DNA from: Candidatus Latescibacterota bacterium
GTDB lineage: Bacteria; Latescibacterota; UBA2968
Direction of reading: 5' to 3'
Length of the DNA stretch: 64,000 nucleotides
Assembly: GCA_965222605.1 (NCBI GenBank)
Contig: OZ244960.1
Location: forward strand, 256,001-320,000
Shown here: piece by piece, positions 42,861 through 49,361 of the stretch
How positions within the stretch are numbered: position 1 is the first letter of the stretch
How the letters are laid out: each line of letters begins with the position of its first letter
Notes under the pieces: generated by a model
The model's input: only the letters and a program-made list of their open reading frames with translations
The model's database searches: none
What the model was told of the DNA's origin: nothing
Program-made: the position numbers and the translations under genes

Positions 42861-43286
42861 TCAATTGTTGACGGTCAGCCCCATACTACGAGCTGTTCCC
42901 GCAATCATGCGCTTGGCAGCCTCGATGCTGGCCGCATTGAGGTCTTGAACTTTCATTTCTGCAATTTCCTGAAGTTGGGCATCGGTCACGGACCCCACTT
43001 TGTCTCGGTTGGATTCTGGCGACCCTTTGACAATCCCCGCTGCCCTCTTGAGCAATACGGCCGCAGGTGGACTCTTCAACTCAAAAGAAAAACTCCTGTC
43101 CGCGTAAACCGTGATAATTGCGGGAATTATCAAACCCTGTTTATCCTGAGTTTGTGCATTAAAAGCTTTGCAAAATTCCATAATATTGACGCCGTGCTGT
43201 CCCAAAGCTGGACCAACCGGTGGTGTGGGCGTCGCCTGCCCAGCGGGAATTTGCAACTTGATTGTTGTGAGAATTTTTCTGGCCAT
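42861..43286 (-). CDS. rplK: 50S ribosomal protein L11
   Basis: [23 protein letters not shown]; GTARSMG. Confidence 0.98.
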
Positions 43287-43298
43287 TGATACCTCTTG

Positions 43299-43835
43299 TT
43301 ATCGCGATTCGATAGCTTCTTCAACCTGCAAGACATCTAATTCCACGGGTGTGTTGCGCCCAAAGATGCTAACCATCACTTTGATTTTGCTCTTTTCTGG
43401 ATTGATGTCGTCAACCAGCCCAATAAAATCGCTGAAAGGTCCATCGATCACCTTGACCCGATCGCCTACTTGATAGGGAACATCAGAGGTTTCCTCGACC
43501 GGACGACGCTCAATTTGCCCCAAAATGCGGTTCACCTCTTCTTCTCGCAGAGGTTGTGGTCTTCGGCCTGGACCGACAAAGCTCGTCACACCCGGTACAC
43601 TGGTGACAAAATAGAGAGACTCTTTGTCCATATCCAGTTCAACCAAAAGGTAACTGGGCAAAAATTTCTTGAGGGAGGTCGTTTTCCGTCCATCCTTCAT
43701 CTCGACGACTTCCTCAGTTGGCACAATCACCCGACCAATTTTGTCGCCAACATCGATGTTTTCTTTGGCGGCCTCAATATAGCTCTTGACCTTATTTTCG
43801 TGCCCAGAATAGGTGTGGACAACGTACCATTTCAT
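43299..43835 (-). CDS. nusG: Transcription termination/antitermination factor NusG
   Basis: WYVVHTYSGHENKV; KOW GDRVKVIDGPF; IFGRNTPVEL. Confidence 0.97.
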   Translation of the reverse strand: MKWYVVHTYSGHENKVKSYIEAAKENIDVGDKIGRVIVPTEEVVEMKDGRKTTSLKKFLPSYLLVELDMDKESLYFVTSVPGVTSFVGPGRRPQPLREEEVNRILGQIERRPVEETSDVPYQVGDRVKVIDGPFSDFIGLVDDINPEKSKIKVMVSIFGRNTPVELDVLQVEEAIESR

Positions 43836-43865
43836 CGGTCGAAAACTCCCTGACAAAAAATCCCG

Positions 43866-44066: not shown

Positions 44067-44142
44067 TGGCAGGCCAGGCAGGACTTGAACCCGCAACCGT
44101 CGGTTTTGGAGACCGATGCTCTACCAGTTGAGCTACTGACCT
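44067..44142 (-). tRNA. tRNA-Trp (CCA)
   Basis: AGGTCAGTAGCTCAACTGGTAGAGCATCGGTCTCCAAAACCGACGGTTGCGGGTTCAAGTCCTGCCTGGCCTGCCA cloverleaf. Confidence 0.96.
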
Positions 44143-44154
44143 ACCCAAAAATAA

Positions 44155-44230
<76 letters not shown>

Positions 44231-44255
44231 GTTGGGAATTCCCCACTTGAGGTTC

Positions 44256-44332
44256 TGGAGCGGGAAACGGGACTCGAACCCGCGACCCTCAGCTTGGAAG
44301 GCTGACGCTCTGGCCAACTGAGCTATTCCCGC
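44256..44332 (-). tRNA. tRNA-Gly (TCC)
   Basis: GCGGGAATAGCTCAG...CAGCCTTCCAAGCTG...GGTTCGAGTCC...TCCA. Confidence 0.96.
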
Positions 44333-45799: not shown

Positions 45800-46558
45800 T
45801 CAATTCCAATATTCACTTTGTGCAGGTGGTCCAGACCTTAATGCACTGCGAATCAACAGGCCCAAAACCCGGGTAAACACCACCATCAAAAAAAAATTAA
45901 ACATCGAAGCCAGCACCAAACCCACCCAGGACAAATGTCCCAATATCAAACTGCCGAGCAGAGATATCCCAAACAGACCAAAACACGCTTGAACGTAGTC
46001 TGCCCGAAAAATCTGGCGCAAATCCCGCCAAACAGGCCCCGGCTCAAATGCCATCCACACACGCCCGTTGGCGGCAAATCGCGTAAATACAATGGGGAAA
46101 AAACCGTGAAAAAAGATGACCATAAGTGTAAACAACAGCAACAGAGGCCCGGCTTCTTCTACAGAACTCGGTATCAAACCCAATACCGAAATCACCATTG
46201 AAAAACTCGCAAATCCAATGACGCTATATCCCAGGACAATGAGGAACAACCAAAATCCCGCTAATCCATAAGCCCACCAATTGCCCCACGAAGGCAAGTT
46301 CAGCGATTCAGTACCGTTGAGCGCATCGACAAAAATCCGGTATAAGTAACCCCAGGTAATGAACAAAAGTCCAAAGGTTACAATCAACAACACGATCCCC
46401 ATCTCAAGCCCAATTTGCCCAGTGAGAATCAGACTCAGCACCAGCGCGGGTAGCAAATTTAATACACCGCCAGGGACAATTTTTTGCCACCAGCCAGGCG
46501 CCTGAAACACAGTTCGGAGTGTGTTAAATAAAATAATGCCAAACATAGCTTTCCACAT
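45800..46558 (-). CDS. Integral membrane protein, DUF4013-like
   Basis: W..K...GG, WGY, LPSW..W...G pattern; multiple TM helices; start uncertain (46558 or 46546). Confidence 0.65.
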   Translation of the reverse strand: MWKAMFGIILFNTLRTVFQAPGWWQKIVPGGVLNLLPALVLSLILTGQIGLEMGIVLLIVTFGLLFITWGYLYRIFVDALNGTESLNLPSWGNWWAYGLAGFWLFLIVLGYSVIGFASFSMVISVLGLIPSSVEEAGPLLLLFTLMVIFFHGFFPIVFTRFAANGRVWMAFEPGPVWRDLRQIFRADYVQACFGLFGISLLGSLILGHLSWVGLVLASMFNFFLMVVFTRVLGLLIRSALRSGPPAQSEYWN

Positions 46559-46559
46559 G

Positions 46560-47753
46560 TTAGACTGCGTCGAGCGCCCGTCCAACATCGGCGACAATAT
46601 CCTCAGCGTCTTCAATTCCCACGGCATAGCGCACCAACTCATCGGCAATGCCAATTGCCAATCGATCTTCGCGCGTCAACTCGTAATACGAAATAGATGC
46701 GGGATGCGAAACGAGGCTCTCTACACCTCCCAGACTGGCCCCGATACACGGGATTTGCAAGCGGTCAATAAAATCCAGGGTACCCGCCTCATCCGCATCT
46801 AAATCAAAACTCACCAGCCCACCAAATCCACGCATCTGCGCTTTGGCAACACTGTTGTGTGGATGGCTTTCCAAACCGGGATAATACACGCGCTTTACCC
46901 GATCGTGCTTTTCCAAAAACCGCGCCAACATTAGCGCCGTTTCATTTTGCTTACCCATTCGCAGTGGAAAAGTCTTGATCCCCCGGATCAGCAAATAAGC
47001 ACAATGCGGATCAATCACCCCTCCCAAAATACCTCGATAGTCTCGAATCGCATCAACAAGGGGCGCATTACCCAGCACAGCGCCAGCCATCAAATCGTTG
47101 TGCCCTCCCAAATACTTGGTCGCCGAATGAATGACCAGATCGACGCCAAATTCGAGCGGGCGCTGGTTTAAGGGCGTGGCAAATGTGCTGTCAATAATCG
47201 TCTTTACCCGATGCCTTTTTCCAATGTCAACCAGCTTTTCGAGATCGATCACATTGAGATGTGGATTTGTCGGAGATTCGGAAATAATCACCCGCGTGTT
47301 ATCCTTGATCGCGCCTTCCAATTCGGCGTAATCACCTGCGTGAACAAATGTGGTTTCAATGCCAAATTTTTTTAACACCATCTGGCAAAATTGTGCGGTC
47401 TTGCGATAGCAGTCGTCCATAATCACCGCGTGGTGCCCGGTTGACAGCATACCCAGAAGCGTGGTTGTCACAGCACTCATACCCGACGAAAATAAAATAG
47501 CGGCCTCTGCGCCTTCCAATTCTGCCAGCTTGGATTCTGCGGCATGCTGTGTTGGATTGCCGTAGCGCCCATAGTCAATCTGTGGGTTTTTGCCCGCCAC
47601 AAACGCTTTAACCGCTTGCGTATCTTCAAATACATAAGTCGATGTCTGCACAATGGGCACTGTCAGAGATTTTCCCCAGTGTCCTCTTTCTTCACCTGCA
47701 TGTACAGCCCGTGTCCCGGAACAGGGCGCGTGCGTTTCGCACTTTTCAGACAT
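46560..47753 (-). CDS. metB: Cystathionine gamma-synthase family PLP enzyme, plant-CGS-like
   Basis: YGRYGNPT, SGMSA, DCYRKT, ESPTNP, DSTFATPLNQ and SATKYLGGHND motifs; GGAG RBS; SAM riboswitch upstream. Confidence 0.85.
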   Translation of the reverse strand: MSEKCETHAPCSGTRAVHAGEERGHWGKSLTVPIVQTSTYVFEDTQAVKAFVAGKNPQIDYGRYGNPTQHAAESKLAELEGAEAAILFSSGMSAVTTTLLGMLSTGHHAVIMDDCYRKTAQFCQMVLKKFGIETTFVHAGDYAELEGAIKDNTRVIISESPTNPHLNVIDLEKLVDIGKRHRVKTIIDSTFATPLNQRPLEFGVDLVIHSATKYLGGHNDLMAGAVLGNAPLVDAIRDYRGILGGVIDPHCAYLLIRGIKTFPLRMGKQNETALMLARFLEKHDRVKRVYYPGLESHPHNSVAKAQMRGFGGLVSFDLDADEAGTLDFIDRLQIPCIGASLGGVESLVSHPASISYYELTREDRLAIGIADELVRYAVGIEDAEDIVADVGRALDAV

Positions 47754-47764
47754 GCGCCATCTCC

Positions 47765-47827
47765 AAAAAAAAGCGGAGCCACAAAAGCTCCGCGCAGTAC
47801 GCAAAAAAACCGGACTAAAAAGCCCGG
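47765..47827 (-). terminator. Two tandem intrinsic terminators in the metB leader
   Basis: CCGGGCT/AGTCCGG + T7 (47827-47803); GCGGAGC/GCTCCGC + T8 (47793-47765). Confidence 0.75.
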
Positions 47828-47839
47828 AATTTGGAATAA

Positions 47840-47890
47840 CTTTTTAGCGACTTGTTTAAAGTGGCTGCAATATGCCGCAAATCACCACTC
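47840..47890 (-). ncRNA. SAM-II (SAM_alpha-type) riboswitch aptamer
   Basis: GAGTGGTGATTTGCGGCATATTGCAGCCACTTTAAACAAGTCGCTAAAAAG matches the recalled SAM-II pattern GUGGUGAUUU...UUGCAGCCAC..AAA.AA.UCGCUAAA; sits upstream of a Met-biosynthesis gene. Confidence 0.85.
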
Positions 47891-47909
47891 GCCATAGCTG
47901 TGTTTGAGA

Positions 47910-47938
47910 AATATAACCAAAACTCCCAACCCTGTCAA
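47910..47938 (-). promoter_or_regulatory. metB promoter abutting the thrC stop
   Basis: TTGACA-17 bp-TATATT. Confidence 0.65.
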
Positions 47939-49303
47939 CTATCGGTTGCCTTCAATCCGGTCGAGAATCGCCTTTTTGACAGCATCAACTTTGGGCGGCA
48001 ACACAACGGGTTCATTGCAGTAATGCGGACTTACGCCCCAGTCCTGTAACTGATCTCGATGATACCCGAGCTTAAACTCGGTAAACTTCAATCCGTGAGC
48101 CGTTGAAATCACAACCACGCGATCGCTTTTCTGAATCACACCCCTGTCAGCCAACTTGAACAATGCCGCGAAAGCCACCCCTGTGTGCGGGCATGCAAAC
48201 AAACCCGTGCGATCGGCACGCGCAGCCGCATCGGCCAATTCTTGCTCACTGGCTTGCTCTACGACGCCGCCAAATATTTTGAGCGTTTTGATCGCTTTTT
48301 CCCGACTCACCGGATTGCCAATTTGGATCGCACTGGCCAATGTGGGCTGTGCCTGAATCGGTTCAAAACTATCGAAATTCTTTTCAAAACTACGGTAGAG
48401 CGGATTTGCCATATTGGTCTGTGCGACTACAATACGCGGCAGCCGATCAATTAGCCCAAGTGCTTCCATTTCGAGAAAACCCTTGCCGAGCGCACTCACA
48501 TTGCCCAGATTTCCGCCGGGAATCACAACCCAATCGGGCACTTCCCAATCAAATTGCTGTACCAACTCGATGCTGATTGTTTTTTGCCCCTCTACCCGCA
48601 GTGAATTCATCGAATTGGCCAAATAGATATTTTCCTCGTGGCAAATCTCCTGCACGAGTCTCATACATCCATCAAAGTCGGTCTCCAAACTCAGCACCAG
48701 CGCACCATTGGCCAAGGGCTGCAAAAGTTGTGCAGTCGAAATTTTGTCCCTCGGCAAAAAGACCACCGACTGTATGCCCGCCGCCGCACAATACGCAGCC
48801 AATGCCGCCGAGGTGTCTCCAGTAGATGCACAGGCAACCGCAGGAATACGCGCCCCCTCAAACAGCATCTGTTTCACCATCGACACCAGCACGGTCATGC
48901 CCAAATCTTTGAATGATCCCGTATGGCTATTGCCGCATTGCTTAACCCACAAATCCTCAACCCCAATTTCTCTGCCCAAACGCTCGGCCCAAAACAGATT
49001 GCTTCCCCCTTCGTACATCGACACCACATTGTCTTCGTGAACTACGGGACAGACCAGTTCTTTTTTTCCCCATACAGAACTGCCATAAGGCCATCTCGTA
49101 GTCATATAACGCTTATCAAATAACCCGCGCCAATAACTGCTCGACTTGCGTTTGAGCACCTCCATATCGTGCGCCACTTCGAGCAACTCCCCGCACTTTG
49201 GACATGCGTAAATCACATCTGTCAACGCATATCGCCCCTCACACCCGCGAAAACACCGAAACCACGCATTGTAAGTTGTATCATTCATATTTTCGTTACG
49301 CAT
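47939..49303 (-). CDS. thrC: Threonine synthase, plant-type
   Basis: [43 protein letters not shown] and STAHGLKF motifs; start 49303 or 49288. Confidence 0.93.
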
Positions 49304-49361
49304 TATGACAAAACCCAGCACAAATGCACCAAACTCGCCAACACTACCACATATCACAGAG

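Follow-up and report, generated by a model that had tools for sequence, protein, structure and literature searches.

The 64,000-nucleotide stretch of the Candidatus Latescibacterota contig OZ244960.1 analysed here (positions 256,001 to 320,000; hereafter the window) carries on its minus strand a row formed by a threonine synthase (TS) gene, thrC, an S-adenosylmethionine (SAM)-responsive riboswitch aptamer of the SAM-II class and a gene of the cystathionine γ-synthase (CGS) family. A preliminary description of this DNA had reported the two genes as adjacent and co-oriented, with the SAM-II element directly before the CGS gene, and all three are indeed present at or near the places it named. The thrC gene (47939..49303, minus strand like every other element of the row) encodes 454 amino acids from an ATG at 49303, within an open reading frame (ORF) of 47939..49357; the next Met, at 49288, is an alternative start and is the start in most relatives. 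The spacer between thrC and the CGS gene measures 185 bases. It opens directly after the thrC stop codon with a sigma-70-like promoter, TTGACA-17-TATATT (47910..47938, 11 of 12 consensus matches), and continues with the aptamer (SAM_alpha, RF00521; 47823..47898), which scored 44.5 bits against an Rfam gathering score of 36. Two hairpins follow. The first, terminator-like, is CCGGGCUUUUUAGUCCGG with a U run (47803..47827, 7 pairs); the second is a terminator hairpin, GCGGAGC...GCUCCGC followed by U8 (47765..47793, 8 pairs, 6 of them G-C), and lies directly 5' of the Shine-Dalgarno sequence. The CGS gene (46560..47753, ORF 46560..47804) encodes 397 amino acids from its likely start, the ATG at 47753, ahead of which stands GGAG at 47764-47761. 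The host genome is a single contig of 6.34 Mb, rated 98.68% complete, and its nearest named relatives are Candidatus Latescibacterota metagenome-assembled genomes (MAGs), whose CGS is 96% identical.

The CGS matches PF01053 with 438.5 bits, and its best solved match is the tobacco CGS (1QGN/1I41, 386 bits), well above E. coli MetB (1CS1, 239.5 bits). Its pyridoxal phosphate (PLP)-lysine motif SATKYLGGH and its DCYRKT motif align with K261 and Y163 of the tobacco enzyme, respectively, and the equivalent of Lys165 is present; Y163 is the PLP-stacking Tyr in the tobacco numbering, according to the accessible portion of PMC8428831. Curated families capture the protein poorly. None of the best 25 of the 55 NCBIfam families that it matched reaches its curated cut-off (the highest score is 403.2 bits for PRK08249, against 600), and the canonical MetB, MetZ, MetY, MetC and methionine γ-lyase (MGL) equivalogs are likewise below cut-off among the families listed. 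When 29 representatives of the clade described below were compared with NCBIfam at E<=1e-135, 0 matched, and therefore no curated family covers this clade.

We then placed the enzyme among its relatives. In a search of 1.84 billion cluster representatives with the CGS, a plant CGS representative (P0254) ranks 14th; it groups with named Hibiscus and Brassica proteins and is the only one seen to carry the MTO1 motif RRNCSNIGVAQ, together with about 150 extra residues. In a FastTree phylogeny of 146 rows, from which 15 short matches were left out, the window CGS falls in a 47-row clade with support of 100 that also holds a plant and algal group. An IQ-TREE phylogeny of 68 rows gave the ingroup an SH-aLRT support of 97 and the plant/eukaryote clade, nested among bacterial lineages, a support of 100; the window CGS sits in an 8-row clade of its own (99) within a group that neighbours the plant clade but is not its sister. 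Outside the CGS clade lie the genome's own Cys/Met-family paralog and CGSs fused to MetX-like hydrolases. The earlier claim that this CGS is of the plant kind is thus borne out by the best solved match and by the shared clade (support 100 and 97), and the phylogeny proposed at that time, once built, groups the protein with plant CGS and apart from relatives of the MetB, MetC, MetY, MetZ and MGL types. The plant enzymes (tobacco CGS, Arabidopsis CGS1/MTO1) share with it the clade, the DCYRKT motif and the PLP-lysine motif, but they possess the MTO1 region, which the window CGS lacks, starting as it does near tobacco residue 56. A number of proteins of about 760-800 amino acids with two Cys/Met-PLP domains in tandem were also noted (P0241, P0243, P0346 and P0362, and about 16 of 755-770 amino acids), some of which fall in the eukaryote/plant-type part of the CGS tree.

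The residues after the stacking Tyr distinguish the members of the family. The window, Hibiscus and Brassica proteins have Y-R-K, DCYRKT being identical in all three, and most of the 47-row clade has Y-[RK]-[RK]. Fusions of TS with CGS (see below) have Y-M-[RK]-R, a distant group of Latescibacterota labelled f10 and Smithella have Y-G-[KR], and most of the 99 out-clade rows have Y-G-G. Sorted by genetic context, CGS forms linked or fused to TS show Y-[RK]-[RK] or Y-M-[RK], while every CGS fused to a MetX-like hydrolase shows Y-G-G. The Lys at tobacco position 165 is said, from work of Steegborn in 1999, to fix the phosphate of O-phosphohomoserine (OPH) in plant CGS, where bacterial CGSs reportedly have Gly. 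The basic residue is a weaker diagnostic of OPH use than this suggests, because f10 keeps it yet possesses MetX and lacks both a plant-type TS and a second family member. The idea that Y-R/K-R/K marks genomes devoid of MetX was also considered and dropped, since the motifs set against MetX presence gave no clean relation; in about 11 of 89 loci the regular expression that extracted these motifs chose wrongly.

The next solved matches after tobacco CGS are MGLs, at 327 bits, and the protein scores 389.5 bits with TIGR01328, though the cut-off of that family is 549.7. These scores raise the question of whether the enzyme is catabolic, a methionine or cystathionine γ-lyase in an organism that takes up methionine. 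We regard this as barely credible. In the alignment of solved structures the MGL has Y-G-C where the CGS has Y-R-K, and the trees place the CGS with plant CGS and not with the out-clade rows. Moreover, a SAM riboswitch with a terminator would lower expression at high SAM, which is contrary to the requirements of a degradative enzyme. The usual role of SAM riboswitches is to switch off genes of biosynthesis, and one in front of the CGS gene therefore fits a synthase, not a lyase.

The neighbouring TS resembles its plant counterpart to a similar degree. It matches the fold-type II PLP domain PF00291 with 204.9 bits and passes the TIGR00260 thrC equivalog (221.9 bits, cut-off 167.1). Against the Arabidopsis TS structures (1E5X, 2C2B and 2C2G) it scores 553 bits over residues 15-442, the alignment to 1e5x opening at query residue 15, which corresponds to chain residue 46. 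For the TSs of Thermus, Aquifex, Mycobacterium and one more bacterium the scores are only 176-182 bits (181 bits for the next solved TS after Arabidopsis), and these alignments do not begin before query residue 84-86; the N-terminal domain by which plant TS is distinguished is therefore present in the bacterial protein. Three parts can be recognized: an N-terminal four-Cys stretch resembling a zinc ribbon, the N-domain, which shares homology with the Arabidopsis one, and a PALP catalytic domain carrying the PLP-lysine motif SFKD. Relatives share 64-97% identity with it, and the 120 best matches in the search are all bacterial. The gap in score between the solved structures supports its assignment as a plant-type TS, in agreement with what had been proposed; the motifs quoted in the preliminary description, including SYYELTREDRLAIGI, were also all located in the TS and CGS translations, where they align to the plant proteins.

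The likeness to Arabidopsis TS1/MTO2 extends over the N-terminal domain and the PLP-lysine motif, and the two enzymes have the same substrate and the same place at the branch point. They differ in that the bacterial TS has four N-terminal cysteines (CxxxxC...CxxC), conserved in a Nitrospira fusion, of which the plant chain has none, and in that it has neither the transit peptide nor the some 30-45 residues with which the crystallised plant chain begins. In addition, the Latescibacterota genome has a second TS, of the PRK08197 type, besides the plant-type one. Plant TS is allosterically activated by SAM, with four molecules of SAM bound at the dimer interface. As read from the alignment, conservation of the N-domain in the bacterial protein indicates common descent and not SAM binding, and any effect of SAM on this TS would be a prediction.

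In other bacteria the two enzymes are joined in one chain. Among 111 proteins longer than 697 amino acids that match the CGS at E<=1e-60, 64 are TS-CGS fusions of about 848 amino acids in which the TS always comes first; their TS parts are 64-71% identical to the window TS and their CGS parts 44-55% identical to the window CGS, and Nitrospira or Nitrospirae is the named source of some. CGSs whose partner is a MetX-like hydrolase show 35-39% identity, and PALP fusions such as a Microbacterium protein combine a non-TS PALP domain with Y-G-G-T; judging from their domains and motifs, these other partners mark other chemistries. Fusion of the CGS with TS points to a shared substrate.

We next consider what the complete genome offers for methionine and threonine synthesis, including the search for metA, metX and thrB suggested at the outset. 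Profile searches did not find MetX (TIGR01392), MetA (TIGR01001, PF04204) or the HcyBio route in the genome, and they returned only one weak match for MetE (24.8 bits). Homoserine kinase, ThrB (306.6 bits), homoserine dehydrogenase and MetH (1647 bits) are present. Since no homoserine acylation is seen, OPH is the one activated homoserine whose synthesis is seen in the genome. Strong Cys_Met_Meta_PP genes number only two, the CGS and the paralog, a protein of 388 amino acids at G000:C1:1923032-1924156 with the motif Y-G-G-T.

In plants, TS and CGS compete for OPH, and SAM activates TS while repressing CGS through the MTO1 nascent peptide. On gene content, linkage, fusion and motif, the best reading of the locus is that the Latescibacterota host likewise makes methionine from OPH, a reading to which we would give a probability of about two in three. 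As we infer its substrate, sulfur donor and second step, the route would start from OPH, the product of homoserine kinase, which TS would turn into threonine; CGS would exchange the phosphate of OPH for the sulfur of cysteine, giving cystathionine, or might use sulfide and give homocysteine directly. The second Cys/Met-family enzyme, or some other lyase, would then release homocysteine, and MetH would methylate it. Such a route needs no acyl-homoserine and would therefore explain the missing MetA and MetX. It would have the superfamily and the end product in common with the canonical MetA-MetB-MetC route of E. coli and with MetX-MetY, from which it differs in that the host genome shows no MetA or MetX and in that its CGS shows Y-R-K at the place where Y-G-G prevails among the out-clade rows.

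The use of sulfide could also be the whole of the reaction. An OPH sulfhydrylase would take the same substrate and make homocysteine from sulfide in one step, with no need for a cystathionine β-lyase. The genome's only other family member is not assignable as a β-lyase, CGS, MetY and MetZ functions interconvert within the family (many NCBIfam scores are nearly equal here), several related lineages (f10) have a single family member, and plant CGS can use sulfide in vitro. Against this, its nearest relatives of characterised function are genuine cystathionine γ-synthases of plants, and the paralog is kept in most CGS-containing genomes of the related groups f1, f2 and f3, with two family matches per genome, which fits a two-step route. 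We consider a sulfhydrylase unlikely, although it deserves to be kept in mind.

The distribution of the pair within the phylum was followed in a sample of 121 Latescibacterota genomes including the host, in which f1 and f2 represent the host's family and order. With a plant-type CGS called at E below about 1e-125 and a plant-type TS at an identity of at least 64%, the CGS is found in 26/28 genomes of f1, 12/13 of f2, 34/41 of f3, 2/2 of f4, 1/1 of f5 and 1/1 of f7, and the TS in 28/28, 12/13, 34/41, 2/2, 1/1 and 1/1 of the same groups and in 0/13 of f10. The TS gene lies less than 1 kb upstream of the CGS gene on the same strand in 70 of the 76 sampled genomes with both, and several of the six exceptions (G102, G085, G060, G001, G059 and G106) are at contig ends. 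MetX was not found in f1 (0/28) or f2 (0/13) and is present in 5/5 genomes of f8. MetA occurs in 3 of the 41 f1 and f2 relatives, all three being the genomes of one f1 genus (3/3), the only group of the sample in which it was found. Neither MetA nor MetX is thus seen in 38/41 of these relatives or in the host genome, and many of the assemblies are single contigs.

Members of the CGS clade are also found well outside the phylum, in Gemmatimonadota, Anaerolineae, Myxococcota, Planctomycetota, Hydrogenedentota, Thermodesulfobacteriota, Fibrobacterota, Spirochaetales, Leptospirales, Nitrospirales and Bacteroidales. In a cross-phylum sample of loci (597 of 600 pattern matches confirmed, 80 kept), a TS of at least 66% identity stands just upstream of the CGS gene in 11 loci, a TS-like gene of 41-45% identity lies nearby in 9, mostly Anaerolineae and in convergent orientation, and in the remaining 60 the flanks showed neither. 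Gene content was surveyed in the genomes behind 50 of the 80 loci, which are MAGs of unknown completeness and, where related, not independent of one another. A plant-type TS, here of at least 62% identity, is encoded in 14 of these 50 genomes; MetX or MetA is present in 2 of the 14, versus 25 of the remaining 36. A plant-type TS thus goes with fewer MetX or MetA genes, which is a tendency and not a test. The broader proposition that the CGS clade never coexists with MetX was rejected, since MetX is present in 24/50 genomes from other phyla and in 23/54 genomes of f3 and f10. The narrower pattern holds: MetX is missing and MetA is confined to one genus in f1 and f2, and few of either occur in genomes with a plant-type TS.

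Two observations from this survey stand by themselves. The convergent TS-like gene just downstream of CGS in Anaerolineae and relatives (L033, L037, L038, L041, L044, L048, L071 and L090) is 41-46% identical to the window TS and aligns from about residue 15-21, so that the N-domain is included; this is a second, different conserved TS-CGS arrangement. The complete chromosome CP070806 of a Phycisphaerales MAG (L064/G150) encodes MetY (694.5 bits) and a CGS-clade gene and gave no MetX or MetA match.

Several points weigh against OPH-dependent methionine synthesis. For the bacterial members of the TS and CGS clades alike, no enzyme activity is known. MetX is present in 13/41 genomes of f3 and 10/13 of f10, and MetA occurs together with the plant-type pair in G114 and G117, which belong to one genus. 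Because MAGs are incomplete, each 'not found' outside the closed genomes carries less weight, and genomes that are related do not count as independent samples. In f10 (for example L103-L107), a distant CGS-like gene of 52-55% identity with the motif D-A-Y-G-K/R occurs in 11/13 genomes, with MetX in 10/13, a plant-type TS in 0/13 and no second family member at E<=1e-60; this enzyme, which falls close to the plant-type clade, may use O-acetylhomoserine while keeping the basic residue. In the 50 genomes from other phyla, MetX was counted in 24, with one further weak match, alongside MetY in 27 and MetA in 3. As for the second step, the paralog reaches no NCBIfam cut-off and is closest, among solved proteins, to MGLs, and MetH alone is no proof of de novo synthesis, as it also recycles homocysteine. 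The two further ThrC-like genes of the genome complicate the simple picture as well. Finally, plant CGS complements an E. coli metB mutant, and hence accepts O-succinylhomoserine, as stated in the accessible portion of PMC8428831.

Some of these points would suit a CGS that works on an acyl-homoserine, supplied by an unrecognised acyltransferase or by uptake, with the link to thrC reflecting nothing beyond shared regulation of the aspartate family. The acceptance of O-succinylhomoserine by the plant enzyme agrees with this, as does the coexistence of the broad clade with MetX in 24/50 other-phylum and 10/13 f10 genomes, the latter having no MetY-like second match. However, MetA and MetX are not found in the closed genome or in 38/41 of its f1 and f2 relatives. 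Where MetX does occur in other phyla, MetY is present in 23 of the 24 genomes, often adjacent, and MetX therefore has a partner of its own there. The CGS forms that are fused to a MetX-like hydrolase belong to a different clade with Y-G-G, and the fusion with TS again points to a shared substrate. An acyl-homoserine substrate in the host would seem to have only a slim chance.

Homocysteine might also arise from OPH by way of a different enzyme. The second ThrC of the genome (G000:C1:2442032-2443195; L014:1333-2499) has 388 amino acids and passes the PRK08197 threonine synthase equivalog with 597.7 bits (cut-off 303). It may be a constitutive TS beside the regulated one, or a paralog with a different function, for instance as a MetM-like synthase. 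In the MetM/MetO route of Streptomyces, homocysteine is made from OPH, and MetM is a ThrC homologue that uses OPH (Hasebe et al. 2024, as summarised in the accessible part of GapMind 2026). If the PRK08197-type protein acted in this way with a sulfur-carrier protein, the CGS would be an accessory. The gene does co-occur with the plant-type pair (f1 28/28, f2 12/13, f3 29/41, f10 0/13) and is present in 69 of the 79 genomes with a plant-type TS. Its clear match to the TS equivalog and its solved matches, which are all TSs, argue otherwise, and no small carrier-protein gene was seen beside it when its neighbourhood was inspected. We give a MetM-like role very little credence. According to the same partial source, the Streptomyces route resembles OPH-dependent synthesis in Latescibacterota in having a bacterial OPH start that bypasses MetA and MetX, and differs in relying on a ThrC-family enzyme with a thiocarboxylated carrier, where the Latescibacterota candidate is a fold-type I enzyme of the plant-CGS type. 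Among 14 control genomes, the PRK08197 family has matches in two methanogens only. The third ThrC-like gene (G000:C1:768984-769895; L015:1357-2427) encodes 356 amino acids with N-terminal CxxC...CxC cysteines and scores 141 bits, below the thrC cut-off, and 278.9 bits with PRK06450, just below the cut-off of 301.

The leader of the CGS gene gives further information on regulation. The 6.34 Mb genome contains no copy of the RF00521 aptamer but this one. Among 11 related loci that have the TS-CGS pair, 7 carry the aptamer in the same place (39.7-46.2 bits), which speaks against a chance match. It is absent, at the gathering score, from L047, L058, L065 and L084; in these loci and in the f3 genomes the gap between thrC and CGS is only about 30-110 bases, and the riboswitch is therefore an insertion typical of the host's family and order. 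We aligned eight leaders (the window, L020-L025 and L027). The aptamer core is invariant, as is the TTGACA -35 box (8/8); from this conservation and the match to consensus, the promoter is predicted to drive the CGS leader. The terminator hairpin with its U run is likewise conserved in all eight leaders, with changes on both arms. The first hairpin is restricted to the window and L020. Its apex is complementary to the 3' strand of the aptamer, CUAAAAAG, with a duplex energy of -9.2 kcal/mol, so that this hairpin may be an antiterminator partner of the aptamer tail. In L021-L025 and L027, the second hairpin carries the complement of the aptamer tail. In all eight leaders, about 10 bp in the 5' arm and loop of a downstream terminator are complementary to the tail (CUAAAAAG and two further bases), at -9.2 to -11.3 kcal/mol.

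These features suggest a simple switch. The CGS gene would be a transcription unit of its own, with promoter, SAM-II aptamer, intrinsic terminator and Shine-Dalgarno sequence. When SAM is plentiful, the A-rich 3' strand of the aptamer would be held in the pseudoknot, the terminator would form and the CGS mRNA would be cut short; when SAM is scarce, the 3' strand would pair with the 5' arm and loop of the terminator and allow read-through, an antitermination mechanism that we infer from the pairing. The promoter, the aptamer and the conserved terminator together point to SAM-dependent termination, and the CGS arm is probably controlled by the riboswitch in this way. Since thrC lies upstream of both promoter and aptamer, it is not under riboswitch control. 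The unconstrained minimum-energy fold of the leader speaks against the scheme, as it forms both terminators without SAM; the switch would therefore have to be kinetic.

The preliminary description had further proposed that the riboswitch replaces MTO1. The MTO1 region is indeed absent here, and to that extent the proposal stands, as a fair functional analogy. Plant CGS also responds to SAM through the mRNA of the enzyme itself, but it does so by nascent-peptide-mediated stalling and mRNA decay, whereas the window has a predicted riboswitch and terminator in the 5' leader. SAM-II riboswitches of Proteobacteria control met genes, according to the accessible part of Leyn et al. 2014 (PMC4239095). 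The Latescibacterota element belongs to the same aptamer family as these and likewise precedes a methionine biosynthesis gene; it differs in its host, in its target, a plant-type CGS, and in an expression platform that resembles an intrinsic terminator and not Shine-Dalgarno sequestration.

In the portion of Reyes-Prieto and Moustafa 2012 available to us, plant TS and CGS are listed as non-cyanobacterial in origin. The suggestion that the Latescibacterota lineage is a relative of the donor of the plant pathway is only loosely supported by the trees: plant CGS does nest in a broad bacterial radiation, but the clade of the window is not the sister of the plants. In the literature, as far as the partly accessible sources go, OPH-dependent CGS is treated as a plant trait, and MetM/MetO is treated as the novel bacterial OPH pathway (GapMind 2026). 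We found no published description of a bacterial OPH-dependent CGS or of a TS-CGS fusion in a search that left subscription journals mostly outside. What appears to be new is the probable occurrence of the plant pathway in bacteria, widespread and with the plant-specific controls replaced by a riboswitch or a fusion. A bolder version is possible, though we hold it doubtful: the regulatory logic of plants, in which SAM activates TS and represses CGS, would predate plants, the pair, linked or fused in several bacterial phyla, would be the sort of module from which both plant enzymes came jointly, and the OPH branch point would constitute a widespread third bacterial start to methionine beside MetA and MetX, mistaken at present for a pathway gap or for auxotrophy in Latescibacterota, Gemmatimonadota, Nitrospirota and other groups.

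If OPH-dependent synthesis is correct, many uncultured bacteria would make methionine without MetA or MetX by a route that textbooks assign to plants, the clear examples being Latescibacterota and those genomes of other phyla that have a plant-type TS, and genome-based predictions of methionine auxotrophy for such groups would need correcting. The linked or fused TS-CGS pair would provide a concrete bacterial context for the non-cyanobacterial origin of the plant enzymes and a tractable means of finding out whether activation of threonine synthase by SAM predates plants. There would also be two unrelated SAM controls of CGS mRNA, a riboswitch with a terminator and the MTO1 nascent peptide of plants. 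All of these consequences derive from sequence, genomic context and phyletic patterns.

Other genes lie close to the pair in the window. Directly downstream of CGS is a gene for a DUF4013 membrane protein (45800-46654, minus strand; PF13197, 60.9 bits), whose true start is probably later, because its longest ORF overlaps the 3' end of the CGS gene. Further on, the segments 44070-44332 and 42861-43856 (both minus strand) hold three tRNA genes in a row, identified by Rfam, and adjoining ORFs whose translations resemble, by eye, ribosomal protein L11 and NusG.

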